In this document: positions 1 to 12,575 of the stretch, in pieces | How positions within the stretch are numbered: the stretch's first letter is position 1 | Layout: every line of letters starts with the position of its first letter | IMG/VR virus record: IMGVR_UViG_2698536677_000006 | Location: 1-12,575 of that record | Strand: one strand, 5' to 3' | Source: a virus | Lineage: Duplodnaviria; Heunggongvirae; Uroviricota; Caudoviricetes | Length of the DNA stretch: 12,575 nt | The notes under the pieces: model-generated | The model's database searches: none | What the model was told of the DNA's origin: nothing | Seen by the model: only the letters and a program-made list of their open reading frames with translations | Program-made: the position numbers and the translations under genes

Positions 1-185
1 TCCGGCTCAGTTGCACCACTGACCACCACATCACCTTCTGCTGTAATCGCCTGCATCAGGGTATAAGGGGTTATGGCCACCGGACTACCAAACGGCTGCC
101 AGCCCTCTTTCAGTTTGTGTGTCAGCTTTTCCGCAAGGTCTGACGGCGACGCCGCCCTGACAACATCATAATGTTTAATCGACAT
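1..185 (-). CDS. Partial CDS (5' end only, continues past window start): small phage protein resembling the DUF1737-type proteins found just upstream of lysis genes in lambdoid prophages
   Basis: Hand translation of minus strand from ATG at 185..183 gives MSIKHYDVVRAASPSDLAEKLTHKLKEGWQPFGSPVAITPYTLMQAITAEGDVVVSGATEP with no stop before the window edge. GGGAGA Shine-Dalgarno about 8 nt upstream. Family call is from memory. Confidence 0.45.
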   Translation of the reverse strand, partial: MSIKHYDVVRAASPSDLAEKLTHKLKEGWQPFGSPVAITPYTLMQAITAEGDVVVSGATEP

Positions 186-271
186 CGAATTTCTCCCGTG
201 TACAGGAACAGAGTTAAAAAGCCGGAACCGGAATCAAATCACAGGATGGCCATCTGCCAGTGGCTGGTCGT

Positions 272-298
272 AAAAAAAAGGCCACGCCATGCGCAGCC
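272..298 (-). terminator. Candidate rho-independent terminator downstream of the TerB/peptide cassette
   Basis: Minus-strand RNA GGCUGCGC-AUG-GCGUGGCC (8-bp stem including two G-U pairs, 3-nt loop) followed directly by U8 (plus-strand A8 at 272-279). Confidence 0.4.
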
Positions 299-499
299 GG
301 AAATAAAGGGATAACGATGATAGTTTGAGAAAAACAGAAACAACACTTTTGTGGCAAAGCATGGTGCCGGGTGCCTCCCGGTGAATTCAGTATCAGCACC
401 TGAATCCGCGATTATCCCATATACCTGGTTGCTGATCGCCCCTCCGCACAGGGGGATTCACCATGCAGAAGTGTTTTTAATAAACAGCAAACAAAAAAA

Positions 500-667
500 T
501 CAAGCATTATGCAGGCTGTTTCTTTTTATCACCGGCCACAGCAATACCACAATGCCGCAGACCAGCACCCCATCCGCCAGCACCGACATGATTCTGCTGG
601 TGAAATCCACCATCACCACCAGAAACAGCAGGAGTGCAGCCACAGCCAGGCGCAGTTTTACCGTCAC
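500..667 (-). CDS. Small hydrophobic protein (55 aa, two predicted hydrophobic segments), translationally coupled to the upstream TerB gene
   Basis: Not in the ORF track (below 60 aa). Hand translation: VTVKLRLAVAALLLFLVVMVDFTSRIMSVLADGVLVCGIVVLLWPVIKRNSLHNA, stop TGA at 502..500. GTG start at 667..665 overlaps the TerB stop TGA (666..664) in a GTGA arrangement; GGAG lies 8 nt upstream. Confidence 0.3.
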   Translation of the reverse strand: MTVKLRLAVAALLLFLVVMVDFTSRIMSVLADGVLVCGIVVLLWPVIKRNSLHNA

Positions 668-1095
668 AGGTGATTCTCCAGACGAAGACCCAGAACACCG
701 GCAATCTCTTCCAGCACCTTGCGCTCTTCCGGCTCAATTTCGCCGTCTGCCTCCGCAATGGCCACCGCCACATCCAGCACATCTTCCGCTTCACGCGTAT
801 CGTGTTTCACATCCTCAATCTCGCGTAACGCGGCACGACGACCAATTTTAAAATTGGTATCCAGCTGACCGATAATGGTTGCGCTAATCGCATTAATTTC
901 CGAGGTAAACGCAGACAACGCAGGCTGATTACGTAAGACCTGTTCGATCTTCGCTTTCTCGGATGCCTCGCATTCACCATCTGCATAGGCCACCAGGTAT
1001 GCAGCGTTAATCACCGCCTGTGCCAGATCGCGTTTCTCAAACTTTTTAATTTCCGTTGCCGCTCTGCGGGCTTTTTTACCAAAAATACCAAACAT
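664..1095 (-). CDS. TerB-family (tellurite-resistance TerB-like) protein, about 143 aa
   Basis: ORF track 664..1167; likely real start is the internal ATG at 1095 (MFGIFGKK...) with AGGA 8 nt upstream. Two acidic helix motifs typical of TerB: AAYLVAYADGECEASEKAKIEQVL and VAVAIAEADGEIEPEERKVLEEIAGVLGL. Confidence 0.7.
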   Translation of the reverse strand: MFGIFGKKARRAATEIKKFEKRDLAQAVINAAYLVAYADGECEASEKAKIEQVLRNQPALSAFTSEINAISATIIGQLDTNFKIGRRAALREIEDVKHDTREAEDVLDVAVAIAEADGEIEPEERKVLEEIAGVLGLRLENHL

Positions 1096-1227
1096 CGTGA
1101 CGTTCCTTTGGGTGGGTGAGCCAACGCCCGGGAGCGATCTGCCCACAGAGAAAGTCACACTGACCACTCCGTAAGCTCACCCCCGAAAGGCTCTGTGGTT
1201 GATATGCGCCGGGCGTGGCGCAGATAC

Positions 1228-1251
1228 AAAAAAGGCCCGCCAAAGCGAGCC
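1228..1251 (-). terminator. Rho-independent terminator immediately 3' of the tRNA pair
   Basis: Minus-strand RNA GGCUCGC-UUUG-GCGGGCC (7-bp stem, one G-U pair) followed by U6 (plus A6 at 1228-1233). Confidence 0.5.
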
Positions 1252-1263
1252 TGGAAAATAAGT

Positions 1264-1340
1264 GTGGTGCGTTGTACTGGATTCGAACCAGTGACCGATT
1301 GCTTAGAAGGCAATTGCTCTGTCCGGCTGAGCTAACAACG
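1264..1340 (-). tRNA. tRNA-Arg (anticodon UCU), phage-type
   Basis: Reverse complement folds as a 77-nt cloverleaf: acceptor GCGTTGT/ACAACGC, D-arm GCTC-AGCCGGACA-GAGC, anticodon arm ATTGC-CTTCTAA-GCAAT (anticodon TCT), T-arm ACTGG-TTCGAAT-CCAGT, discriminator A, encoded CCA. Confidence 0.85.
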
Positions 1341-1421
1341 CAGAATACCGATAATGGACCGCCACCGGGGACTCCGAATCTCGCACAGGGTGACGTTCTT
1401 TCCTGATGAGCTAGTGGCGGT

Positions 1422-1497
1422 TGGTGGCTCTTGCTGGATTTGAACCAGCGACCTGGCGATTATGAGTCGCTCGCTCTCACCACTGAGCTAAAGGGCC
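1422..1497 (-). tRNA. tRNA with CAU anticodon, ileX-like (tRNA-Ile2, lysidine type) rather than elongator Met
   Basis: Reverse complement GGCCCTTTAGCTCAGTGGTGAGAGCGAGCGACTCATAATCGCCAGGTCGCTGGTTCAAATCCAGCAAGAGCCACCA: D-arm GCTC/GAGC, anticodon loop CTCATAA, T-loop TTCAAAT, encoded CCA. Strong resemblance to E. coli ileX as recalled. One C4:A69 mismatch in the acceptor stem. Confidence 0.75.
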
Positions 1498-1537
1498 GAT
1501 AACATAATGATAACGTTACAGAATAAATTCAGCAATA

Positions 1538-2596
1538 TCACTCTCTCTTTCTGATTAAATTCTGTACATCCCTTGCGGTCTGCTCAAAACGTTCAGCCTC
1601 CAGCTCGACACCAATTGCACGACGCCCCAGCGCCATCGCGGCTTTGACTGTCGAACCCGACCCCATGAAGAAATCTGCAACCAGGTCACCCGGACGACTG
1701 CTGGCGGTAATCATTTGCCGCAACATATCTGCCGGTTTTTCACAGGGATGTTTGCCCGGATAATACTGCACAGGCTTGTGCGTCCAGACATCCGTATAAG
1801 GAACGGCTGCCGATACGGAAAAATAACGCCGCAGTGATTTGTACTCTTCCAGCAGGCTGGCATACTGCCGGTTCAGCTCACTGTATGTGCTGACCAGTTG
1901 GTGATGTGGCTTTTCCAGTTCTCCCCGCTGATGTTTCTCTTCTGCCACCCGGGCAAACAGCACCTGAAGTTTTCTGTAATCATCCTCGTTCGGTAACTGC
2001 CACTGGCTGGCACTGAACCAGTGCGACACCATGTTTTTCTTTCCTGTGGCATCTGCAATCTGTTTTGCCGTTATCCCCAGGGCCGCGCGCGCATCACGAA
2101 AGTAAGAAATCAGCGGGGCCATCACATGCTGTTTCAGTGCACTGCCCTTCGCCGCATACCCGGCATCTTTCGGACGATACGGCCCCTGATAATGTTCCGC
2201 GAACAGAATGCGCTCTGTGGCGGGGAAATACGCCCTCAGGCTTTCCTTGTTGCATCCGTTCCAGCGTCCGGACGGCTTCGCCCAGATAATATGGTTCAGC
2301 ACACTGAAGCGTTCACGCATCATGATTTCGATATCAGATGCCAGGCGATGACCACAGAACAGGTAAAGACTTCCGGCAGGTTTCAGCACCCGCCAGAACT
2401 GCGCCAGACACTGGTCCAGCCACTTCAGGTAATCATCGTCGCCCTTCCACTGGTTATCCCAGCCCTCGGGCTTCACTTTAAAGTATGGCGGGTCTGTGAC
2501 TATCAGATCGACAGAGTTTTCCGGTAAGGTCTGGATAAATTCCAGGCAATCAGCGTTGATTAACTCACAACTGGATATTTTTACAGTATTAGCCAT
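1538..2596 (-). CDS. DNA N6-adenine (or N4-cytosine) methyltransferase, beta-class, orphan (no adjacent endonuclease)
   Basis: 352-aa ORF. Catalytic motif IV DPPY near the N-terminus (LIVTDPPYFKV) and SAM-binding motif I near the C-terminus (DLVADFFMGSGSTVKAA), the circularly permuted order typical of phage amino-methyltransferases. Confidence 0.85.
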   Translation of the reverse strand: MANTVKISSCELINADCLEFIQTLPENSVDLIVTDPPYFKVKPEGWDNQWKGDDDYLKWLDQCLAQFWRVLKPAGSLYLFCGHRLASDIEIMMRERFSVLNHIIWAKPSGRWNGCNKESLRAYFPATERILFAEHYQGPYRPKDAGYAAKGSALKQHVMAPLISYFRDARAALGITAKQIADATGKKNMVSHWFSASQWQLPNEDDYRKLQVLFARVAEEKHQRGELEKPHHQLVSTYSELNRQYASLLEEYKSLRRYFSVSAAVPYTDVWTHKPVQYYPGKHPCEKPADMLRQMITASSRPGDLVADFFMGSGSTVKAAMALGRRAIGVELEAERFEQTARDVQNLIRKRE

Positions 2597-2734
2597 AGAT
2601 CAATAAGCACTTCTCTGATAGGCTCATACCGCTTTTGCGCAAAGCAGATGGGCCTGAGGTTTGCTTGTGACCACAACGCATGAGCAGATGGCTGGTGAGT
2701 GCCCCTAACACCCACCAGCCGCCCATTACCACAA

Positions 2735-2760
2735 ATAAAAAAGCCTTCACTGAGGAAGGC
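2735..2760 (-). terminator. Terminator copy in the methylase leader (copy A); the upstream gene is missing because of the N gap
   Basis: Same hairpin as at 3222..3247 and 6207..6232: GCCTTC-ACTGAG-GAAGGC followed on the minus strand by a U-run. Confidence 0.4.
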
Positions 2761-2780
2761 GTCTGTAACAACCGAACTGA

Positions 2781-2791
2781 NNNNNNNNNNN
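2781..2791. other. Run of 11 N: scaffold gap or assembly join
   Basis: Literal n characters. Sequence on each side belongs to different copies of the same repeated module (2597-2780 matches 6069-6252; 2792-3083 matches 2305-2596). Confidence 0.95.
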
Positions 2792-3083
2792 TGAAGCGTT
2801 CACGCATCATGATTTCGATATCAGATGCCAGGCGATGACCACAGAACAGGTAAAGACTTCCGACAGGTTTCAGCACCCGCCAGAACTGCGCCAGACACTG
2901 GTCCAGCCACTTCAGGTAATCATCGTCGCCCTTCCACTGGTTATCCCAGCCCTCAGGCTTCACTTTAAAGTACGGCGGGTCCGTGACTATCAGGTCAACA
3001 GAATTTTCGGGTAACGACCGGATAAATTCCAGGCAGTCGGCGTTGATTAACTCACAACTGGATATTTTTACAGTATTAAGCAT
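2792..3083 (-). pseudogene. 5' fragment of a second, diverged copy of the adenine methyltransferase gene, truncated by the N gap
   Basis: ORF track 2589..3083 begins MLNTVKISSCELINADCLEFIRSLPENSVDLIVTDPPYFKV and runs into XXXX; it differs from the 1538..2596 copy at A2L, QT to RS and A to V. The part of the ORF below 2781 is out-of-frame read-through, not gene. Confidence 0.6.
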
Positions 3084-3221
3084 GGATCATTAAGCCTGTC
3101 TCTGATAGGCTCATTCTGCTTTTGCGCAAAGCAGTGGGCCTGAGGTGTGCTTGTGAACCCAACGCATGAGCAGATGGCTGGTGGGTGCCCCTAACACCCA
3201 CCAGCCGCCCATTTACCACAA

Positions 3222-3247
3222 ATAAAAAAGCCTTCACTGCGGAAGGC
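3222..3247 (-). terminator. Rho-independent terminator overlapping the 3' end of the small CDS 3234..3431
   Basis: Minus-strand RNA GCCUUC-CGCAGU-GAAGGC followed by U6-7 (plus A-run 3222-3229). The stop codon of the small CDS lies in the hairpin loop. Confidence 0.5.
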
Positions 3248-3431
3248 GTCTGTAACAACCGAACTGATAGTCTGCCAGACCCGCCATAACCAGCTGGGTC
3301 AGTATTAACTGGCAGCGTTCGCGTGAAAGGTAAGTATTCTGCGCAATCTCCCCGACTGTCGCCGGGTCGTTAACGCTTAATTCATTAAACACCACTCTGG
3401 CGGTTTCTGTCATATCCTGCTGTTTTAGCAT
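3234..3431 (-). CDS. Small conserved protein (65 aa), first ORF downstream of the Q-position gene; function unknown
   Basis: Internal ATG of ORF 3234..3518 (MLKQQDMTETARVVFNELSVNDPATVGEIAQNTYLSRERCQLILTQLVMAGLADYQFGCYRRLPQ). The same protein with only three substitutions is encoded at 6219..6416 although the two DNA copies differ, which favours real coding. Confidence 0.45.
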   Translation of the reverse strand: MLKQQDMTETARVVFNELSVNDPATVGEIAQNTYLSRERCQLILTQLVMAGLADYQFGCYRRLPQ

Positions 3432-3553
3432 GTCTTTTTCCCTTTTCCGGTTAACGTGACACACCAATAACTCTTGTCGAAAAAGCCAGCAAGCTGAAAG
3501 ACAGGTATTCACCGCCACCAGCGCGTTTACTGTACTGACGCGATTTCAGTCAT

Positions 3554-3575
3554 AAAAAACCCGCCAGGCGGCGGG
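3554..3575 (-). terminator. tR'-like intrinsic terminator downstream of the Q gene
   Basis: Minus-strand RNA CCCGCC-GCCU-GGCGGG (6-bp GC stem) followed by U6 (plus A6 at 3554-3559), about 80-100 nt after the Q stop, as expected for the lambda PR'/tR' arrangement. Confidence 0.5.
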
Positions 3576-3657
3576 GTGTAAAAAATCTTCTAACGTCAGG
3601 CATAAAACGCCCATCGTTAGAGCAAATTTACCACAGATTCGGGAAAAATCAACAACA

Positions 3658-4479
3658 CTATCGCGTTACCCTCTTTAACTGCCGCTCCGCCCATGCCTCT
3701 TCAATGTCAAACCGAACCACCAACGTATCGTAAAAGCGTTTCACTGATTTTTTCCACGTATCAAGCGTGATAGCACTCGTCACTTTGCATATGGCATTAA
3801 ATGCCTCCGTTGATGGCAGCCTTTCACAGCCACGACCACCACAACGCTGGCAATCTCTGATAACAGGCATACCACGTTTTACCGACTCTTCACGATGAAT
3901 GGCGACACCACGCCCACGGCAATCCTTACAGGCGGTGGAAACCTCACCCTTTCCGCCACACTCCGGACAGGCAACTTTTACCACCTCCCTGACTTTTTTC
4001 CATTCTTCCCAGTAAGACGGATACACGCCTTTTGTGCACTTTGCCCACACTGGTGGCTTACCATCCGGATACTGGATCTTGTTTGTAAAAACCTCGCTTT
4101 CAATAAATTTTTTTCCGTGACAGCAGGGGCACTGTTTTTTGCTCGCCGCGCTACGGGCATAATCTTCAAACGCATACGAAGCCATAATGCGCATCACTAC
4201 CGGTTTTATTTCTGCCGGAAGTTTTCTCAACGCCGCCACACGATCGCACCGACTGAGTGCATAATCTGCCAGTAATTCTGTTGCCCGCGCCCTGTCATTC
4301 ATACTGATGCCCATTTTCCCCAGGAACGCAGAAAACCCCATCTCAGCCCGATTCTGTGTCATGCCCTGCGCGGCCATCACATCAGTGATACTCAGCGCAT
4401 CTTTTGACGTTGAGGCCGATGCATCGGTCAGGCCAGGGGATTTTGGGGAGTAGTATTTCGGTAAATCTTCCAGTTTCAT
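3658..4479 (-). CDS. Late-gene antiterminator Q, lambda-Q family, with an expanded cysteine-rich domain
   Basis: 273 aa. Recalled lambda Q matches at the N-terminus (KYYSPKSP vs KFHSPKSP; TDVMAA) and C-terminus (FYDTLVV vs LYDALVV; ends VTR). Four CxxCxGxG repeats (CPCCHGKK, CPECGGKG, CKDCRGRG, CQRCGGRG). ATG overlaps the RusA stop (ATGA). Confidence 0.8.
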   Translation of the reverse strand: MKLEDLPKYYSPKSPGLTDASASTSKDALSITDVMAAQGMTQNRAEMGFSAFLGKMGISMNDRARATELLADYALSRCDRVAALRKLPAEIKPVVMRIMASYAFEDYARSAASKKQCPCCHGKKFIESEVFTNKIQYPDGKPPVWAKCTKGVYPSYWEEWKKVREVVKVACPECGGKGEVSTACKDCRGRGVAIHREESVKRGMPVIRDCQRCGGRGCERLPSTEAFNAICKVTSAITLDTWKKSVKRFYDTLVVRFDIEEAWAERQLKRVTR

Positions 4480-4856
4480 TTTTTGACCTGCTCTTCATGC
4501 ATTATGGGGTAAATCTTCACCCCCATACGTCCACCAGATACTGGCTGACCACGAACGATATTGATTTCATCAAACTGCTCATCGTCCATTAACACTCCCG
4601 CATGCGTCAGCGCATCCAGCGGTGCTTTCAGGATATTGTCCAGGTCGCGACGACGCTTATCCGGTGGCTCTGCAATCACCTTTATCGCCAGCCTTCCGGA
4701 CAGGATTAATTTCAGCCGCTGCTGGCGAACAATAAGCGCCACAGCCCGGCGATAACGCTTTCCCTCCTCCGAGATAAAATATGTGCTGCCACGGCGTCGC
4801 CAGTAAGTGTTCACCGTTGGCGGGTAAGGCAAAACAAATTCTATGCGTTCAGTCAT
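4476..4856 (-). CDS. rusA: RusA-family Holliday junction resolvase
   Basis: 126 aa. Catalytic spacing D-x-D-x3-K ... D as in RusA (RRRDLDNILKAPLD ... LMDDEQ). Directly abuts the upstream YdfU-like stop (TAAATG) and overlaps the Q start. Confidence 0.85.
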   Translation of the reverse strand: MTERIEFVLPYPPTVNTYWRRRGSTYFISEEGKRYRRAVALIVRQQRLKLILSGRLAIKVIAEPPDKRRRDLDNILKAPLDALTHAGVLMDDEQFDEINIVRGQPVSGGRMGVKIYPIMHEEQVKK

Positions 4857-5912
4857 TTATGCTTTCCACTTCAGAACACCCGAATTTCTCGCGTGCATTA
4901 AAAAACGAATCAGCAACAACAGCTGGCTGCCGTGTTTTTCTTCAAAATCTTTTACCCCGGCGTGTAGTTCGCTATGGCATTTACGGCACAGCGGAATAAC
5001 AAACAAATCATCAGCCTTTGTTCCCATCCCTCCCAGTCCATGACCAATGATGTGATGCGGATCATCTGCCTGATTGCCACACGTCATGCATTTCTGCGTT
5101 TTTACCCAACGCGTGTATACAGGCATCTCTTCCCGTTGTGATTTCTGGCGCTGGAGATACTGAGCCGGTGACTCCGGATCAACGGCAATGCTGACCACCG
5201 TCTTTTCCTGTGGCGGGTTTTGCTGGTGGGCGTGAGGCAGCGGCGCAAGATTTTTTGTGCGCTGCTTCAGTATGCTGGTGGCGGTCTGCTCTCCCGGTAC
5301 GATGTCGCTTTCACGGTACATTGAGCGGATTTTTTCCGCACGCAACCCCAGCGAACGACGTAATACCGCTTCCGGTAGCGCGTCCGCCACCTGATTGCGG
5401 ACCGCCCACCAGGATAATTCAGCCAGCGATAATTCCCGTTCCTGCGAGCCATTCATTGCATGGCGTATGACGTCAATCATCCATGCAGACAGGTTTTGGT
5501 GAGCAAGTTGCCCGAGTGATTCGGAGGTCTGGTCGCGCAGCTGGTTGTCGCAGTGCCAGCACAACACCATTGCGCCGGTACCATAACGGTGAATGACGGT
5601 TTCACTGTGGTGATAATCGCCGTGTGGCCACTGGCAGGATTTAACATGGCGCAGTAACCAGTCAGACAATGCGCCAGCGCCACCAGCAGCACGAATCACT
5701 CGTTCGTCGCTGAAAAATGGCAGTAATGATTTATCCTCCGCCAGCGGCTGGCGAACGGCAGGAACGACCCCGGACGGCAGATTACGCATGCTTTTCGGTT
5801 CCGGCTCCACCAGTACCCGGGTATTGTGGAATACCGGCATGGATTCACGGCCCGGCTTAACGATCACCAGCCCGAGTTCCGGTACCAGAACAGGTCGAAG
5901 TAATACCCGCAC
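4857..5912 (-). CDS. YdfU-like (DUF968) prophage protein with C-terminal HNH-like zinc motif
   Basis: Homologous to the 7572..8621 copy; GTG start at 5912..5910 preceded by GGAGG. C-terminal CxxC ... HH ... C..C..H..LH motif (CMTCGNQADDPHHIIGHG ... CRKCHSELH). The ORF-track extension to 6068 is a chimera across the n at 5957. Confidence 0.7.
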   Translation of the reverse strand: MRVLLRPVLVPELGLVIVKPGRESMPVFHNTRVLVEPEPKSMRNLPSGVVPAVRQPLAEDKSLLPFFSDERVIRAAGGAGALSDWLLRHVKSCQWPHGDYHHSETVIHRYGTGAMVLCWHCDNQLRDQTSESLGQLAHQNLSAWMIDVIRHAMNGSQERELSLAELSWWAVRNQVADALPEAVLRRSLGLRAEKIRSMYRESDIVPGEQTATSILKQRTKNLAPLPHAHQQNPPQEKTVVSIAVDPESPAQYLQRQKSQREEMPVYTRWVKTQKCMTCGNQADDPHHIIGHGLGGMGTKADDLFVIPLCRKCHSELHAGVKDFEEKHGSQLLLLIRFLMHARNSGVLKWKA

Positions 5913-5956
5913 GTTACCTCCAGATGCGTTGCTGGAATGTGCGGGACGGACGCGGT

Positions 5957-6068
5957 NTGGCGGGTCTGTGACTATCAGATCGACAGAGTTTTCCGGTAAG
6001 GTCTGGATAAATTCCAGGCAATCAGCGTTGATTAACTCACAACTGGATATTTTTACAGTATTAGCCAT
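5957..6068 (-). pseudogene. Orphaned 5' end (37 codons) of the adenine methyltransferase gene, joined through a single n to the YdfU-like leader
   Basis: Encodes MANTVKISSCELINADCLEFIQTLPENSVDLIVTDPP, identical to the start of the 1538..2596 gene. 5958-6068 matches 2486-2596. The join falls at a shared GGCGGG microhomology. Confidence 0.55.
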
Positions 6069-6206
6069 AGATCAATAAGCACTTCTCTGATAGGCTCATA
6101 CCGCTTTTGCGCAAAGCAGATGGGCCTGAGGTTTGCTTGTGACCCCAACGCATGAGCAGATGGCTGGCAGGTGCCGCTAACACCCACCAGCCGCCCATTA
6201 CCACAA

Positions 6207-6232
6207 ATAAAAAAGCCTTCACTGAGGAAGGC
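6207..6232 (-). terminator. Rho-independent terminator overlapping the 3' end of the small CDS 6219..6416
   Basis: GCCTTC-ACTGAG-GAAGGC hairpin plus A-run on the plus strand (U-run on the minus transcript). Confidence 0.5.
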
Positions 6233-6416
6233 GTCTGTAACAACCGAACTGATAATCTGCCAGACCCGCCATAACAAGCTGGGTCAGTATTAACTGGCAG
6301 CGTTCGCGTGAAAGATAAGTGTTCTGCGCAATTTCCTCGACGGTCGCCGGTTCGGTGACGCTTAATTCATTAAACACCACTCTGGCGGTTTCGGTCATAT
6401 CCTGCTGTTTTAGCAT
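6219..6416 (-). CDS. Small conserved protein (65 aa), second copy
   Basis: Internal ATG of ORF 6219..6539. Identical to the 3234..3431 product except ND to TE and G to E. Confidence 0.45.
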   Translation of the reverse strand: MLKQQDMTETARVVFNELSVTEPATVEEIAQNTYLSRERCQLILTQLVMAGLADYQFGCYRRLPQ

Positions 6417-6539
6417 GCCTTTTTCCCTTTTCCGGTTAACGTGACACACCAATAACTCTTGTCGAAAAAGCCAGCAAGCTGAAAGAACGGTATTAATAAC
6501 CACCAGCGAATTTATTGCGCTGCTGTATATTACGGACAC

Positions 6540-6561
6540 AAAAAAACCACCTTCCGGTGGC
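6540..6561 (-). terminator. tR'-like intrinsic terminator downstream of the Q-position gene (second module)
   Basis: Minus-strand RNA CCACC-GGAA-GGUGG followed by U8 (plus A8 at 6540-6547), about 80 nt below the stop of the 6640..7203 gene. Confidence 0.5.
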
Positions 6562-6639
6562 TTCCTTGTGCGAAAAAACTTGCATTTCGCCTCGCGATAC
6601 AGCTTTGCGAAGCTTATACGGATTGAAGCAGTTTATTGA

Positions 6640-7203
6640 TCAGTTTGCAACATTTTTCTCTGTAACAAAAGCCATGCGCATGGGGGCATATAACATAAAT
6701 TCAGATACCCCCAACCATTGATCAATTCGGCGTCTGCACGTAACCAACGACCAATCAGGATGATCTGCATTTAACCTTTCGGCCATTTTCAGTTTGCTCA
6801 TTCCCCGTCCTTCGTACCTTTGCCGGAGAACATTGATTAGCCCGGGATATTCCCCAAGCACCTCACTGATAACGCGATCAATAATCAACGCCTCTGTGTC
6901 TGTACAATGTGACAACCAGCTCTTCTGCTTTCCTCTTGTCATATCCCGAAAAAATGCCTCAAGTTCCGGTTTTTCCAGCCCGGATTTCTTCATTCTGCGT
7001 AAAACCTCATTAACTGCTGTTTTCGTCAGCTTTTTCGAAACCAGTAACCGGTTAAACATATTTCCGGATTTACCCCCACCGATATACGACCACCGCCCCC
7101 ACATCCGTAATTTCCCCTGGATCCAGACTGCTTCCAGCGTGTTCAGGCGTAAATGTTCGCCGCTTTTGCCTGTAATTTCCGGATATATCATATTTACGCT
7201 CAC
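6640..7203 (-). CDS. Q-position protein of a different sequence family (putative alternative late antiterminator)
   Basis: 187-aa ORF in the same slot as the lambda-type Q of the other module: start (GTG 7203, or ATG 7191) overlaps the RusA stop, and a tR'-like terminator follows. No sequence similarity to the 3658..4479 protein. Function inferred from position only. Confidence 0.45.
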   Translation of the reverse strand: MSVNMIYPEITGKSGEHLRLNTLEAVWIQGKLRMWGRWSYIGGGKSGNMFNRLLVSKKLTKTAVNEVLRRMKKSGLEKPELEAFFRDMTRGKQKSWLSHCTDTEALIIDRVISEVLGEYPGLINVLRQRYEGRGMSKLKMAERLNADHPDWSLVTCRRRIDQWLGVSEFMLYAPMRMAFVTEKNVAN

Positions 7204-7559
7204 TCACTCTCAATTTTGTAAATCTTCACACCCAGCCGTCCACCAGATACTGGCTGACCACGTACAATATTGATTTCATCAAACTGCTCGTCATCAATGA
7301 GCACTCCCGCATGCGTCAGCGCATCCAGCGGTGCTTTCAGAATGTTGTCCAGGTCGCGACGACGCTTATCCGGTGGCTCTGCAATCACCTTTATCGCCAG
7401 CCTTCCGGACAGGCTTAATTTCAGCCGCTGCTGGCGAACAATAAGCGCCACAGCCCGGCGATAACGCTCACCGGCTTTTGATACAAAATATGTGCTGCCA
7501 CGACGTCGCCAGTAGGTGTTCACCGTCGGCGGGTAAGGCAAAACAAACTCTATGAGCAT
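7200..7559 (-). CDS. rusA: RusA-family Holliday junction resolvase (second copy)
   Basis: 119 aa, near-identical to the 4476..4856 product; same DLDN...K...D motif. Confidence 0.85.
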   Translation of the reverse strand: MLIEFVLPYPPTVNTYWRRRGSTYFVSKAGERYRRAVALIVRQQRLKLSLSGRLAIKVIAEPPDKRRRDLDNILKAPLDALTHAGVLIDDEQFDEINIVRGQPVSGGRLGVKIYKIESE

Positions 7560-7571
7560 CAGTCACCTCTT

Positions 7572-8621
7572 TTACCCGAGCACGCCAGTCGCAAAGGCGT
7601 GATCAAGAAAACGAAAAATTAAATCAACCTGGGAACCATGCTTTTCTTCGAACGCCAGCGGATCCGCATGAAGCTCGTTGTGATGCTCCCGACACAGCGG
7701 TAGCGTGAAAATATCGTGGGATTTTGTTCCCATTCCACCCTGACCATGACCAATCAGATGATGAGGATCGTCCGCTGGCTTACCACAACACGCACACGGC
7801 TGTGTCTTTACCCAGCGTGTGTATTTCTCATTTACCCAGCGGCGACGTTTAGGTCGTTTCATGAAGGATTCCGGAGACTCCGGATCAACGGCAATGCTGA
7901 CCACCGTCTTTTCCTGTGGTGGGTTCTGTTGCTGGTGGGTGTGAGGCGGTAGCGCAATATTTTTTGTGCGCTGCTTCAGTATGCTGGTGGCGGTCTGTTC
8001 TCCCGGTATGATGTCGCTTTCACGGTATACGGAGCGGATTTTTTCCGCCGGTAATCCCAGAGAACGACGCGCTACTGCCTCAGGTAGTGCATCCACCACC
8101 TGATTGCAGGCCGCCCACCAGGATAATTCGGCCAGCGATAACTCCCTCTCCTGCGTACCGCTTATTGCGTGACCGATGACGTCAATCATCCATGCTGACA
8201 GGTTTTGATGAGCAAGTTGCTCGAGTGATTCGGATGTCTGGTCACGCAGCTGGTTGTCACAGTGCCAGCACAACACCATCGCGCCGGTACCGTAACGGTG
8301 AATGACTGTTTCGCTGTGATGATAATCGCCGTGTGGCCACTGGCAGGATTTCACGTGACGTAATAACCAGTCAGACAGTGCACCTGCACCACCTGCTGCA
8401 CGAATTACCCGCTCATCGCTGAAAAATGGTAGTAATGTTTTATCCTCAGCCAACGGCTGGCTAACGGCTGCAACGACGCCGGACGGAAGACTGCGCATGT
8501 TTTTGGGTTCCGGTTCCACCAATATTCTGCCGTTATGGAATACTGACATTGATTCACGGCCTGGCTTAACGATAACCAGACTGAGTTCCGGTACCAGAAC
8601 AGGTCGAAGTAATACCCGCAC
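7572..8621 (-). CDS. YdfU-like (DUF968) prophage protein with C-terminal HNH-like zinc motif
   Basis: 349 aa. GTG start at 8621..8619 with GGAGG 5 nt upstream, which overlaps the stop of the upstream small gene. C-terminus CACCGKPADDPHHLIGHGQGG ... CREHHNELH. Confidence 0.75.
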   Translation of the reverse strand: MRVLLRPVLVPELSLVIVKPGRESMSVFHNGRILVEPEPKNMRSLPSGVVAAVSQPLAEDKTLLPFFSDERVIRAAGGAGALSDWLLRHVKSCQWPHGDYHHSETVIHRYGTGAMVLCWHCDNQLRDQTSESLEQLAHQNLSAWMIDVIGHAISGTQERELSLAELSWWAACNQVVDALPEAVARRSLGLPAEKIRSVYRESDIIPGEQTATSILKQRTKNIALPPHTHQQQNPPQEKTVVSIAVDPESPESFMKRPKRRRWVNEKYTRWVKTQPCACCGKPADDPHHLIGHGQGGMGTKSHDIFTLPLCREHHNELHADPLAFEEKHGSQVDLIFRFLDHAFATGVLG

Positions 8622-8622
8622 G

Positions 8623-8895
8623 TTACCTCCAGATGCGTTGCTGATATGTGCGGGACGGACGCGGCGGGCGTTCGGAATAAGGGAGCCTGACGGAAATTAT
8701 CCAGTGTCGGAAGTCAGGATTGAGGCCTTTCTGAAACTGGTATCCACGTCTGCGGTAATTCTGAATCAGCCACTCGGCCTGTTCTTCAGTGCATTGGTCA
8801 TGCTGGTACCAGTCATATTTGAATGCGTGAGAGCGCCGTCCGTGTCTGCTGGCAGGGTCGGCATCAGAATTGTGGTGTTTGGTATTGTGCGCCAT
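8623..8895 (-). CDS. Small prophage protein (about 90 aa), function unknown
   Basis: Internal ATG (MAHNTKHH...) of ORF 8623..8976. The longer ORF-track start would run through the terminator at 8968-8993, so the internal start is preferred. Stop TAA lies 1 nt before the YdfU-like GTG. Confidence 0.4.
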   Translation of the reverse strand: MAHNTKHHNSDADPASRHGRRSHAFKYDWYQHDQCTEEQAEWLIQNYRRRGYQFQKGLNPDFRHWIISVRLPYSERPPRPSRTYQQRIWR

Positions 8896-8967
8896 CGGTT
8901 GTCTCTGCTGGCGCAGCAGGTGCCAGTTGTTCAGGCTGGCGTGTGGATTGTAAACCAGAATGCCAGG

Positions 8968-8993
8968 AAAAAACAAAACCCGCGAAGCGGGTT
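8968..8993 (-). terminator. Strong rho-independent terminator separating the restriction-modification island from the nin-region genes
   Basis: Minus-strand RNA AACCCGC-UUCG-GCGGGUU (7-bp stem, UUCG tetraloop) followed by UUGUUUUUU, about 75 nt downstream of the endonuclease stop. Confidence 0.65.
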
Positions 8994-9065
8994 AGTAAAA
9001 ATGTACTGAAGTCAATGACGTGCCATCACAGTTAAAATATGACAGACTCTATTTACGTAGAGATG

Positions 9066-9944
9066 TCAGACTGCAAGATCCAAGGGAAGATCAGAAATAT
9101 CCTTTAATCTTTTACCATTAACCATCACGGAAAGCATGTCAGCTGCATCGCTGAGCCCCAGTATTTCAACTGCTGATATAAGTTCATAAAGCGCAAAATG
9201 ATACACGCAATCTATATCACCAGTACCAAGAGCAATAGACGCCAGACGACTTGGAGTAGGCTCAGCAGTAACAACCATTACATGAGGGAGATTTCCCTTA
9301 CGGTTGCGAATAAGATTTAATGCCTCAGAACGAGCATTCTGGGCCCGGTCGCTTCTTATTGTCCATTTGCAGGAAATACTTGCGTGTAATATTGGTTTCC
9401 CACCATTCGAACTCCTGAGAGCTGACATGCGGGTAACAGAATCATCCACCAGTAATTCAGGACTGTTGATAACTTGATCACATTCAGGTTCTCTTTCAAC
9501 AATAATATCTGGTGAAATCGTATAATCACTCCCCAGTGCAGCAGCTAGCTGAGGATTACTTTTTGCAGCACTATCCAATGCTATAAGATGGGCATATTGT
9601 TCATATTTAGCTATCTCTAATCTGTTTCTACCAGAAACCTGATGTACATTCCATTTTCCAGGGCGTAAGTGGCTGAGTTTAAAAAAGGTTTTTTCTATAA
9701 ACTCTGCGCAGATACTCTCAAACTGATTACCAGATGTTTGCCCTGCAACACGTTCACCAATCGTTTCAGCCTGCAAGAAGCGAGCAATTTCTCTTGCTAT
9801 AGCTTTACTGTTTTTGTTACTGCTATCTGCGTTACTAACAACTCCGGCAGTATTAATTGTGAGCGTATTCAGTAACAATTGGGCATGAAACTCCTTTCTG
9901 GCTTCAGCAAAACCAACTATGCTGTCAACCAAATCTCCATTCAT
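9066..9944 (-). CDS. Type II restriction endonuclease, NgoMIV/Cfr10I/Bse634I-like (predicted CCGG-core specificity)
   Basis: 292 aa from ATG 9944 (MNGDLV...), with AGGAAA Shine-Dalgarno and only 13 nt after the methyltransferase stop. Active-site pattern SPD(146) ... SCK(193) ... E(207): D-to-K 47 and K-to-E 14 residues, the spacing recalled for NgoMIV D140/K187/E201. Recognition-type motif K-x3-R-x-D-R (KWTIRSDR). Confidence 0.6.
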   Translation of the reverse strand: MNGDLVDSIVGFAEARKEFHAQLLLNTLTINTAGVVSNADSSNKNSKAIAREIARFLQAETIGERVAGQTSGNQFESICAEFIEKTFFKLSHLRPGKWNVHQVSGRNRLEIAKYEQYAHLIALDSAAKSNPQLAAALGSDYTISPDIIVEREPECDQVINSPELLVDDSVTRMSALRSSNGGKPILHASISCKWTIRSDRAQNARSEALNLIRNRKGNLPHVMVVTAEPTPSRLASIALGTGDIDCVYHFALYELISAVEILGLSDAADMLSVMVNGKRLKDISDLPLDLAV

Positions 9945-9957
9945 TTCTGGATTTCCT

Positions 9958-11082
9958 TCAGGCTGCTTGACTATTCTTACTGATGTTATTCTTATACCGT
10001 CCCTGCAAAACTCCATACACATATTGTGCGATTTTTGCCGCAAATAGCGGTGGAACAGCATTCCCGATCTGCTTTGCAATCTCAGTTTTTGAACCGGTAA
10101 AAATGAAATTATCAGGAAAAGACATTAATCTCGCTGCCTCACGATGAGTTATTGGCCGATCCTCTTCCGGATGTAAATATCGCCCTTTCTCCGGTTTGAA
10201 AAACTCAGTACGAATCGTTACTGAAGGTTTGTCCCACCACAGACGTCCAAACAAATCGGTCCCTCCAGATTTCTTTTTTAGCCAGCACGCCGGGGTTATA
10301 TCAGGTCTTTTTTTCTGTAAATCGAAACGGTTACCTCCTGGTGGAACCGCTTTATATCGCTCCAGAGAAACAGGAGTGGGATTACGCCCAAAATGTAAGT
10401 TCAGCGGAGGAAGTTCATTACGAATATCAGTTCCAACAGGAGCAGGTAAGTCACCAATTGCATCACGCGTACAGACCCATTCAGGCAAAGCGACATCCTT
10501 ATCAGGGGAACGATGCGTTGGTGCTGGCGGGAACGCCGGAATACTATGCACATCGAAGAGTTCTCGTTTGATACCGATTGCTATCGTTCGTTTTCTTGTC
10601 TGAGGTACTCCATAGTCAGCAGTATTCAACACCATTGGATTAAGCAGAATAAAGCCCATGGATTTCGCTCTAAACGTAATGTCCGCAAACTCATCGCTTA
10701 TCAGCAATCCGGGGACATTTTCCATGACGAACATACAAGCCCTTGAACGCTCAATGACATCCATATAAGGCTCCCACAATGCTCTTCGGTGATCACCATA
10801 ACGATTCTTATTCAATAAACTGAATCCCTGACACGGGGGGCCACCTATGACCACATCAGCCTCAGGAACAGTATTGCTGGATGCCCACTCCTCAATATTT
10901 GCCTGAACTCCATGCAAACCAAAATTGGCATTGTAGGTATTTATAGCTGCAGCATTATTATCAATAGCAAGGATACTTTCAAAGTAGTCAGACATCTCTC
11001 CATGAAGAAAACCATAAGATAATCCACCTGCCCCACAAAAGAGGTCTATCACTCTGAATTTATTTAATTCTTTCATCCGCAT
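9958..11082 (-). CDS. DNA cytosine-5 methyltransferase (Type II restriction-modification methylase)
   Basis: 374 aa with the canonical m5C motifs in order: I DLFCGAGGLSYGF, IV GGPPCQGFS, VI ENVPGL, VIII QTRKR, X GNAVPP. GAGG Shine-Dalgarno before the start. Confidence 0.9.
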   Translation of the reverse strand: MRMKELNKFRVIDLFCGAGGLSYGFLHGEMSDYFESILAIDNNAAAINTYNANFGLHGVQANIEEWASSNTVPEADVVIGGPPCQGFSLLNKNRYGDHRRALWEPYMDVIERSRACMFVMENVPGLLISDEFADITFRAKSMGFILLNPMVLNTADYGVPQTRKRTIAIGIKRELFDVHSIPAFPPAPTHRSPDKDVALPEWVCTRDAIGDLPAPVGTDIRNELPPLNLHFGRNPTPVSLERYKAVPPGGNRFDLQKKRPDITPACWLKKKSGGTDLFGRLWWDKPSVTIRTEFFKPEKGRYLHPEEDRPITHREAARLMSFPDNFIFTGSKTEIAKQIGNAVPPLFAAKIAQYVYGVLQGRYKNNISKNSQAA

Positions 11083-11165
11083 CCATATGCCTCAGATTAA
11101 TGTTGAGCGTCTTACAGGACGCGTAATGTTAACTGGGGCTTTCTCTATCTGCCTTTTGGTGTTCA

Positions 11166-11190
11166 TGCCTGAGGCAGACAGCCTCAGGCA
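11166..11190. promoter_or_regulatory. Perfect 9-bp inverted repeat (TGCCTGAGG-n7-CCTCAGGCA) upstream of the methyltransferase gene; candidate operator or RNA hairpin
   Basis: Read directly from the sequence. The arm sequence TGCCTCAG recurs at 11094-11101, overlapping the methyltransferase ribosome-binding site. Confidence 0.3.
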
Positions 11191-11260
11191 CCCGCAGCAA
11201 TTCTACTTAACTCACGTCACCTCGCCAATATGAAATCAATCAGAAAGGTGATCCATAAAA

Positions 11261-11947
11261 TCACTCCTTCTCTTCTTTTCCGTAGTGGAGTTGGCCAATT
11301 TTGATAAGAGGGCGTCCCTGAGATTTGCGGTGTAGATTGGTATCGCGCAGAGAATACACACAGCCACAATATTCCTGCTGATAGAATTTTTCGCGCTTGC
11401 TGATTTCAATCATACGGGACGAGCCGCCCTGCTTGCGCCAGTTATAATCCCAGTACACCATACCCGGATAATGCGCAACAGCTCGCCGCCCACACTCGTT
11501 AACCTGCTGCATATTTTTCCAGCGTGAAATGCCCAGTGAACTACTGATCACACTGAAACCATTTTCAGCAGCGTACAACGCTGTCCGCTCAAAACGCATG
11601 TCAAAACACATGGTACAACGGATCCCCCTCTCAGGCTCCCATTCCATTCCTTTGGCACGTTCAAACCAGTTGTCGGTGTCGTAATCAGCATCGATAAACG
11701 GCACGCCGTGTTGTTCAGCAAAGCGAATATTTTCATCCTTACGAATTAAATACTCTTTCTGAGGATGAATGTTCGGGTTGTAGAAAAAGATGGTGTAGTC
11801 GATTCCCGAGGCCTGAAGCGCCTCCATCACTTCACCGGAACATGGAGCACAGCAAGAGTGCAGTAGTAGTTTGTTTGCCCCGTTTGGAAGCTCCAATTTA
11901 GGCCGTTTGAAATCAGCAATAGTCATAAATATTTTTATTGGGGTCAT
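11261..11947 (-). CDS. DUF208 / QueH-like protein (putative cobalamin-independent epoxyqueuosine reductase homolog)
   Basis: 228-aa ORF with the N-terminal [11 protein letters not shown] signature recalled for QueH/DUF208 and further conserved Cys residues (CTMCFD, YCGC). Start may be ATG 11947 or 11926; neither has a clear Shine-Dalgarno. Confidence 0.5.
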
Positions 11948-12100
11948 GAAAATAGCACAGAGTGTAGCATCAGAGCAGGGCTATCGGGAATATATGTCTA
12001 AATCTGGTAATATCTGGTTTTGACGCAAAGCGGACAACCACGCTGGCTCTACCCTGCGCCATGAAAATGTCAATTCACATCTGAACTAATGCTCTTTAAT

Positions 12101-12526
12101 CTAGTAACGTCTAAAATATCTAACATTTCCTTGATAAAATGCCAGTACACGCTGCATAGCTTCGCTCTTCCGGCACTCGCGACAGATTATATTCAGGCGC
12201 CTGTCGTAGCGGCGTATTTCGCCGTCTGGTAACGACCAGATAAGGTCCGGATCAACCACTGCAGGTTTCTTCACCTTTGCCCTTGAGAGTTTTTTGCGAG
12301 CATTTTGCCAGTCCTTACGCGCCTGTTCAGACGGGAATAACCCGTAACCAGAGTTGTATACATCGCCACTGGCAACCAGCTCTCTGGCGAGAACACTCAT
12401 CAGATATCTTGTCGCACCTGTCCTGGCTTCCAGTTGCCGCAACGTCTCGCGACCGCTCAGACGTACAAGTTCAACAACCTGCCCTTTAATTTTTTCCCGC
12501 TCTTCTTGTGTAAATACTTTTGCCAT
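12101..12526 (-). CDS. Hypothetical basic protein (141 aa), possible DNA-binding protein
   Basis: ORF 12101..12541; the first ATG at 12526 (MAKVFTQEEREK...) has GGAGG 5 nt upstream, whereas the ORF-track start is a TTG. Lys/Arg-rich centre (ARKKLSRAKVKKP) and a single CRECRK. No family recognised. Confidence 0.5.
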   Translation of the reverse strand: MAKVFTQEEREKIKGQVVELVRLSGRETLRQLEARTGATRYLMSVLARELVASGDVYNSGYGLFPSEQARKDWQNARKKLSRAKVKKPAVVDPDLIWSLPDGEIRRYDRRLNIICRECRKSEAMQRVLAFYQGNVRYFRRY

Positions 12527-12575
12527 AAGCGCCTCCGGCAATCACTTTTCCGATACAACACGGCGGGAAGAATCA

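Follow-up and report, generated by a model that had tools for sequence, protein, structure and literature searches.

Repeated late-region module of prophage record CYFX01000063.1 is very probably a false join of paralogous contigs in a short-read draft

In the canonical late region of lambdoid prophages, the nin genes, RusA and Q are followed by a late promoter/terminator leader and by cargo such as a methylase, tRNAs and, in Stx phages, stx. The order found in closed genomes is DUF968, RusA, a Q-type protein, a 65-aa ORF, an N6/N4 methylase, tRNA-Ile/Arg, TerB, DUF3927, a SASA esterase and lysis genes. In a real tandem duplication the copies are nearly identical, and there is a single new junction whose sequence is fully determined. 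As for errors of assembly, a 3.2-kb contig set between two truly overlapping contigs is not the commonest mistake of a scaffolder. Users of SSPACE/GapFiller-type programs, who ran them with Velvet, call the algorithms greedy and liable to join contigs falsely, with each join making an N gap that is then partly closed (PMC5320598).

The window analysed here, 12,575 bp long, is the entire record CYFX01000063.1 of draft assembly GCA_001285605.1; a literature search found no publication on CYFX01 or GCA_001285605. Both of its ends fall inside prophage genes, which fits a draft broken into fragments, and its only non-ACGT characters are a run of 11 N at 2781-2791 and a single N at 5957. These separate three segments, hereafter contigs A (1-2780), B (2792-5956; 3,165 bp) and C (5958-12575), and all features described below lie on the minus strand. 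Both N sites coincide exactly with breaks of colinearity to every reference, and the lineage switches at each, which confirmed the initial annotation in placing the N characters precisely at copy boundaries. We conclude that the repeat array is almost certainly a false join made by scaffolding or gap filling in a short-read draft and not a real feature.

Self-BLAST of the window likewise confirmed three occurrences of the methylase 5′ end and leader, with 2305-2780 matching 2792-3267 (93.9% identity), 2483-2780 matching 5955-6252 (98.0%) and 2974-3532 matching 5959-6517 (91.4%). A YdfU-RusA-Q block had also been reported twice. This held for DUF968-RusA, for which 4509-5955 aligned with 7218-8664 (82.0%), but not for the two ‘Q’ genes, a PF03589 Q and a DUF1133 protein, which are unrelated in sequence (BLASTP E = 3.7) and gave no DNA alignment with each other. 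The divergence of a few percent ascribed to all copies was mistaken for this large block, since its DUF968 and RusA copies are only 82% identical as DNA (81% and 91%, respectively, as protein). The array bears a superficial likeness to genuine tandem prophage arrays or duplications in that module content is repeated head-to-tail on one strand. In contrast to a real tandem duplication, however, it has two different junctions, both at N characters, copies diverged by 2-18% and unrelated Q genes.

Contig A carries the 5′ end of a SASA-esterase gene (1-185), an STnc100 match (323-495, Rfam), DUF3927 (500-667), TerB (664-1095), tRNA-Arg(TCT) (1265-1341), a CAT-anticodon tRNA annotated as tRNA-Ile in RefSeq relatives (1422-1497) and a complete N6/N4 DNA methylase (1538-2596), after which the leader starts; the tRNAs were found by tRNA search and the protein genes by Pfam and the annotation of relatives. 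The body of the contig (1-2672) is 100% identical to the independent assemblies L006 and L008. Its tail (2673-2780) is leader sequence and holds the only mismatches to them, five substitutions at 2673, 2696-2698 and 2704. The core of this variant (2665-2712) occurs exactly in the closed genome B19374 (L005), in a prophage of a different type, and this match identifies the tail of A as an allele from a third lineage of paralogous prophage.

Contig C starts with a duplicate (5958-6252) of 2486-2780, comprising methylase codons 1-37 (5958-6068) and then leader. Its remainder (6253-12575) is 99.97-100% identical to L006, L008, L010 and L012, and encodes the rest of a 65-aa ORF (6219-6416 in full), a DUF1133 Q-like protein (6640-7191; Pfam DUF1133 at E = 2.9e-105, plus PF06530, over 6640-7203), RusA (7200-7559), DUF968 (7572-8621), a 90-aa ORF (8623-8895), an NgoMIV-family restriction enzyme (9066-9944), a C5 cytosine methyltransferase (9958-11082), QueH (11261-11926) and DUF977 (12101-12526), as assigned by Pfam and annotation. 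Among closed genomes, the best match for C in the collection was NZ_CM136167, in one piece at 98.7%, and the collection had none that belongs to the same lineage.

L006, L008, L010 and L012 derive from isolates other than the source isolate or have no established relation to it. In each, A and C align (99.7-99.98%) to one continuous locus that is free of B, and on that locus their coordinates overlap by 298 bp. Joining window positions 1-2669 to 6142-12575 (equivalently, 1-2672 to 6145-12575) gave a sequence of 9,103 bp in which L010 (7,719 bp) and L012 (7,393 bp) are found without a single difference. Both matches span the join, extending from it at least 1.4 kb into A and 5.9 kb into C. L008 differs from the reconstruction by 1 SNP. 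A and C are shown by this to be halves of a single lambdoid prophage locus, and 5958-6252 is their un-merged overlap. The proposal that paralogous prophage contigs had been chained by a scaffolder was supported, as deletion of B restores the sequence of independent assemblies and the junctions are absent elsewhere. It needs amending in one respect: paralogous contigs were chained, but not as three paralogues, the body of A and C being one locus split by B. A collapsed repeat, also suggested in the initial annotation, does not describe the structure, which is instead a false join with an un-merged overlap of 298 bp.

The restored locus is a single ordinary module, DUF977-QueH-R/M-DUF968-RusA-DUF1133-leader-methylase-tRNAs-TerB, and keeps the canonical lambdoid single-copy order of closed genomes. 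It departs from the canonical region in having a DUF1133 Q-like protein in place of a PF03589 Q and a type II restriction-modification pair within the nin region. In both the C module and that of B, the nin genes DUF968/YdfU and RusA precede the Q-type gene (Pfam).

Contig B comprises a methylase 5′ fragment of 97 codons (2792-3083), a leader (3084-3233), a 65-aa ORF (3234-3431) and, by Pfam, a Q antiterminator (PF03589, E = 2e-49; 3658-4479), RusA (4476-4856) and DUF968/YdfU (4857-5912) with 44 nt upstream. It matches the single-copy module of closed genome NZ_OZ547038 in one piece (99.2%), and in that genome the methylase and the 90-aa ORF run on past both ends of B. In L006, L008, L010 and L012 the locus is identical except that these 3,165 bp are missing. 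These comparisons show B to be foreign to the A/C locus; it is an interloper there, a contig that probably stems from a paralogous lambdoid prophage. Exact-protein look-ups in relatives did not locate B's own locus in the isolate, because DUF968 and Q are too widespread and the RusA allele of B is on record only in CYFX01000063.1.

The origin of B bears on whether the sample was mixed or contaminated, such that B and/or the tail of A came from a second E. coli strain and was chained in by the scaffolder, in which case the array would still be an artefact. The window itself offers no evidence that B belongs to the same genome, and its best relatives (AF58, PCN033 and 55989) are not the ones found for A and C. 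However, different best relatives are to be expected because prophage modules are mosaics. Closed E. coli genomes carry a median of 2 and a maximum of 15 places matching the window; since these genomes routinely carry several such modules, paralogues of the same genome are the simpler source. Contamination is in our estimate the least probable of the readings considered, and B and the A tail probably come from elsewhere among the isolate's own prophages.

The junctions themselves are of two kinds. To the left of 2781-2791, the gap marker of the false join between A and B, the leader stops where all references go on as TAGTCTGCC/TAATCTGCC, and to the right it resumes at a point 476 nt earlier, within the methylase gene, so that leader is joined to methylase codon ~97. 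At the second false join, between B and C, the region upstream of DUF968 is joined to methylase codon ~37: B ends in ...GCGGT, the single N follows at 5957, and C starts with TGGCGGG.... The N is A in relatives and belongs to the C/A sequence. A GGCGGG microhomology had been proposed at this join, but B's own lineage reads GACGCGGT|GGGCG, and GCGGCGGGCG belongs to the paralogue in the C module (8655-8664). The flanks of the two junctions differ and are non-homologous.

BLAST with a query spanning junction 2 found it in 0 of 5,426 closed E. coli genomes. Exact pattern scans of IMG/VR, GTDB species-representative genomes and JGI metagenomes gave 0 matches to either junction; as an N in the pattern may miss a literal N in the target, these scans cover resolved junctions elsewhere and not the source record. 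For junction 1, at which 11 bases are undefined, the BLAST design does not amount to an exhaustive count. Places in closed genomes reported as ‘97% covered’ by this query were rejected, being the normal single copy matched twice in permuted order; the matches listed had a 477-bp span with overlapping coordinates on L005 and were in normal order. No GenBank phage covered at least 80% of the window. Within the collections searched, both junctions are, by sequence comparison, unique to CYFX01000063.1.

An alternative is that part of a nin/Q module from another prophage really became nested in the late leader of a resident prophage through two illegitimate recombinations, the N characters being just poor base calls. 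Lambdoid prophages do recombine frequently, B is itself a natural-looking mosaic, and its RusA allele, not recorded outside this record, shows that it does not reproduce a contaminant in common circulation. A real insertion would nevertheless need two different non-homologous junctions, each falling exactly on the sole ambiguous characters in 12.6 kb, together with a 298-bp target duplication, one side of which has the allele of a third lineage. The insert is absent from the near-identical loci of four other assemblies, junction 2 is missing from every closed genome searched, and neither junction was recovered from the scanned collections. Both junctions consist of N, and the proposed microhomology does not occur in B's lineage. 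One phage record whose annotation lists two Q genes was considered as a precedent and rejected, as it holds a single module with a mislabelled DUF968. Were the nested module real, a PF03589 Q and a DUF1133 Q-like protein, as well as two leader/terminator copies, would stand in series before one methylase-tRNA cargo. We regard this as very improbable.

The favoured explanation, false joining, can be set out as a sequence of steps. The source genome would carry several paralogous lambdoid prophages whose methylase 5′ ends, leaders and 65-aa ORFs are 91-98% alike, and the assembler would break contigs inside this repeat. The 298-bp overlap of A and C would have stayed un-merged because the tail of A followed the third paralogue's allele, with its five mismatches. 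Contig B, from another prophage, would then have been chained between A and C, and the runs of 11 N and 1 N would be what is left of the gaps. Compared with the false joins of paired-read scaffolding by Velvet, SSPACE and GapFiller (PMC5320598), the window has small N runs of variable length in a multi-copy prophage repeat, a contig end extended along the wrong paralogue (the A tail) and an un-merged overlap of true neighbours. From the N pattern, the joins may have been made by an SSPACE/GapFiller-like scaffolder and gap filler. A single de Bruijn k-mer size was rejected as the source of the breaks, since the exact repeats at contig ends (76, 71, ~20 and 187 nt) do not fit one k; no assembler can therefore be deduced from repeat lengths. 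Reference-guided ordering by start coordinate on one prophage, also considered, would fit the order A, B, C but not the unequal N runs.

The false joins have left two chimeric ORFs, both annotated as genes in the public record. One, of 403 aa (4857-6068), fuses methylase codons 1-37 across the N at 5957 to the DUF968 of B and has no Pfam match on record; the other, of 164 aa (2589-3083), runs from B's methylase N-terminal fragment through the 11 N into the leader of A. Gene content had been called reliable and gene order across the joins unreliable. The former is true of the intact genes but not of these two ORFs, and the latter proved right, the order in CYFX01000063.1 being false over 2781-2791 and 5957. 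The record shows more copies of Q, RusA and DUF968 than the locus has, and protein databases can take up the methylase-N-terminus/DUF968 fusion and the 164-aa fragment as ‘novel fusions’ that are spurious. Beneath the joins lies a standard lambdoid late-regulation region, so the biological significance of the array is nil and its relevance is confined to data hygiene. Independent assemblies queried by exact protein can resolve such joins without reads.

With regard to late regulation, a scan by consensus found no match to the sigma-70 consensus on the gene strand. The same kind of scan found terminator-like hairpins with T-runs on the gene strand in all three leader copies (2760-2743, 3247-3230 and 6232-6215), and a further one at 3575-3560.

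Every gene of the window lies on the minus strand, and its only non-ACGT characters, a run of 11 N at 2781-2791 (junction 1) and one N at 5957 (junction 2), split it into three segments, with A at 1-2780, B at 2792-5956 and C at 5958-12575. Self-BLAST and a repeat finder bore out the earlier count of three copies of the methylase 5' end plus leader (the stretch between the methylase and a 65-aa ORF) and two of DUF968-RusA. The former were located at 2305-2780, 2792-3267 (93.9% to 2305-2780) and 5955-6252 (98.0% to 2483-2780). A leader and small-ORF repeat paired 2974-3532 with 5959-6517 (91.4%), and the DUF968-RusA repeat paired 4509-5955 with 7218-8664 (82.0%). Pfam identified an N6/N4 methylase (1538-2596), a PF03589 Q antiterminator (3658-4479), two RusA genes (4476-4856 and 7200-7559), two DUF968 genes (4857-5912 and 7572-8621) and a DUF1133 Q-like protein (6640-7203 in the Pfam scan; 6640-7191 in the record annotation). 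The divergence of a few percent given for the repeated block in the initial annotation was too low, as the two copies share 81% (DUF968) and 91% (RusA) protein identity and the PF03589 and DUF1133 sequences are unrelated (BLASTP E=3.7).

Taken separately, A (98.1% to FORC_042), B (99.2% to NZ_OZ547038, one piece) and C (98.7% to NZ_CM136167, one piece) each matched ordinary single-copy prophage DNA. Closed E. coli genomes covered the whole window within ~9,990 bp or less, each with a single DUF968-RusA-Q-65aa-methylase-tRNA module. At both N sites, the window tracked one lineage and then restarted within the methylase gene of another. Past 2780, all references go on TAGTCTGCC or TAATCTGCC, and the window instead resumes at the equivalent of 2305; past 5956, B's lineage goes on GGGCGTTC, and the window instead resumes at the equivalent of 2486. 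Junction 2 reads GCGGT, N, TGGCGGG, and the GGCGGG microhomology previously proposed there does not occur in B's own lineage, where the sequence is GCGGTGGGCG. None of 5,426 closed genomes covered a 401-bp query spanning junction 2 at ≥80%. For junction 1, the places matching the query spanned 477 bp, a normal single copy in which the query halves matched in permuted order; in closed genome B19374, the two query alignments overlapped each other. Neither junction had an exact-pattern match in IMG/VR, GTDB species genomes or JGI metagenomes, and no GenBank phage covered ≥80% of the window. Phage Evi, whose annotation lists two Q genes, was considered as a precedent and rejected, as it really holds one module with a mislabelled DUF968.

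By exact-protein look-up with the complete methylase, the window proved to be the whole of record CYFX01000063.1 (12,575 bp; draft assembly GCA_001285605.1); one retrieved locus, L009, was the reverse complement of window 1-8596. The same methylase was found in independent assemblies (GCA_025669865.1, GCA_013052725.1, GCA_048126935.1, Logan DRR843064 and others), all with the gene order QueH, C5 methyltransferase, NgoMIV-type endonuclease, 90-aa ORF, DUF968, RusA, DUF1133, 65-aa ORF, methylase, TerB. Segment B was absent from every one of them. Window 1-2780 and 5955-12069 aligned at 99.7-99.98% to a single continuous stretch, in which their coordinates overlap by 298 bp, with mismatches in A only at 2673, 2696-2698 and 2704, and the N (A in relatives) as the sole difference in C. 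Joining window 1-2669 to 6142-12575 gave a 9,103-bp reconstruction, of which two loci from independent assemblies (L010, 7,719 bp; L012, 7,393 bp) are exact substrings across the join and from which a third (L008) differs by one SNP. This exact containment and the A/C overlap within one stretch show A and C to be halves of one locus whose overlap was left un-merged, and B to come from outside that locus. The five changes in the end of A represent a natural allele, present in a different prophage type in B19374, and so at least three paralogous leader alleles went into the record. All five lie within or beside a hairpin formed by a 12-bp inverted repeat (GGCTGGTGGGTG ... CACCCACCAGCC; 2687-2717, 3174-3204 and 6159-6189), which is perfect in B and has one mismatch in the A allele and three in the C allele.

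Both joins are false relative to every comparable genome and coincide with the sole N characters, and deletion of the insert gives back an independently observed sequence, which upholds the original reading of a scaffolding artefact. A real nested insertion of B in this prophage is highly improbable, as it requires two different non-homologous junctions that both coincide with the sole ambiguous characters, and a 298-bp target duplication carrying another lineage's allele, in an arrangement that no relative or closed genome shows. An origin of B in contaminating DNA, which would leave the arrangement an artefact all the same, is less simple than paralogous prophages within one genome and is less probable still. 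Segment B resembles an ordinary natural mosaic. Its exact 126-aa RusA (4476-4856) occurred on no other contig in a 153-billion-gene index, and it differs from every fetched relative by one private SNP, at 4705; the allele may be genuine but rare, or may stem from a consensus error in multi-copy sequence.

Per closed genome, the number of places matching the window had a median of 2 and reached 15. The mis-join of paralogous contigs probably arose when short-read assembly broke within the 91-98% similar late-leader repeat common to several lambdoid prophages. The end of contig A would have been extended along the allele of a third paralogue, so that it could not merge with contig C; a paired-read scaffolder would then have inserted B, a paralogous contig, between the two, and the 11 N and 1 N would be what gap estimation or filling left behind. 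According to their own authors, pipelines of the Velvet, SSPACE and GapFiller type are greedy and can make false joins, with N gaps later partly filled (PMC5320598). A single assembly k-mer size was rejected, as no one k fits the exact repeats at contig ends (76, 71, ~20 and 187 nt). A literature search for a paper on CYFX01 found none.

The tandem array as described is not real and holds no new biology, and gene order across the N characters should be disregarded. Two junction-spanning ORFs, 4857-6068 (403 aa) and 2589-3083 (164 aa), are chimeras with no Pfam hit on record; both are annotated as genes in CYFX01000063.1, and spurious fusion proteins from the mis-join are therefore now within public gene and protein collections. 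Once de-chimerised, the locus conforms to a textbook lambdoid late-regulation region, in which the cargo is the usual methylase/tRNA/TerB set and the nin region includes a type II restriction-modification pair. A consensus scan found terminator-like hairpins with T-runs kept in each leader copy.

The restriction-modification cassette comprises an NgoMIV-family endonuclease (9066-9944) and a C5 cytosine methyltransferase (9958-11082), between QueH and the 90-aa/DUF968 genes. In many relatives (e.g. L003 and L023), this position is occupied by hokD, and an Rfam sok-antitoxin match (11013-11193; 61 bits against a gathering score of 59) adjoins and overlaps the methyltransferase 5' end. Together, the residual sok match and hokD at the same position suggest a former hok/sok locus in which the cassette has taken the place of the hok part. 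The window holds only two tRNA genes (1265-1497), Arg(TCT) and a CAT-anticodon tRNA (Met according to ARAGORN, tRNA-Ile in RefSeq relatives). Their spacing varies by lineage, with an additional tRNA-Arg between them in relatives L001 and L002. In the prophage late region, a strong full-length Rfam match to the STnc100 sRNA family (104.7 bits; 323-495, minus strand) sits between DUF3927 and the start of the SASA esterase. Finally, in L007 (GCA_013051945.1), a relative of the reconstructed locus, an IS91-family transposase (PF14319/PF04986, 395 aa) and a 121-aa ORF lie between RusA and the DUF1133 Q-like gene (3185-4737), the insertion shortening the DUF1133 product to 168 aa.
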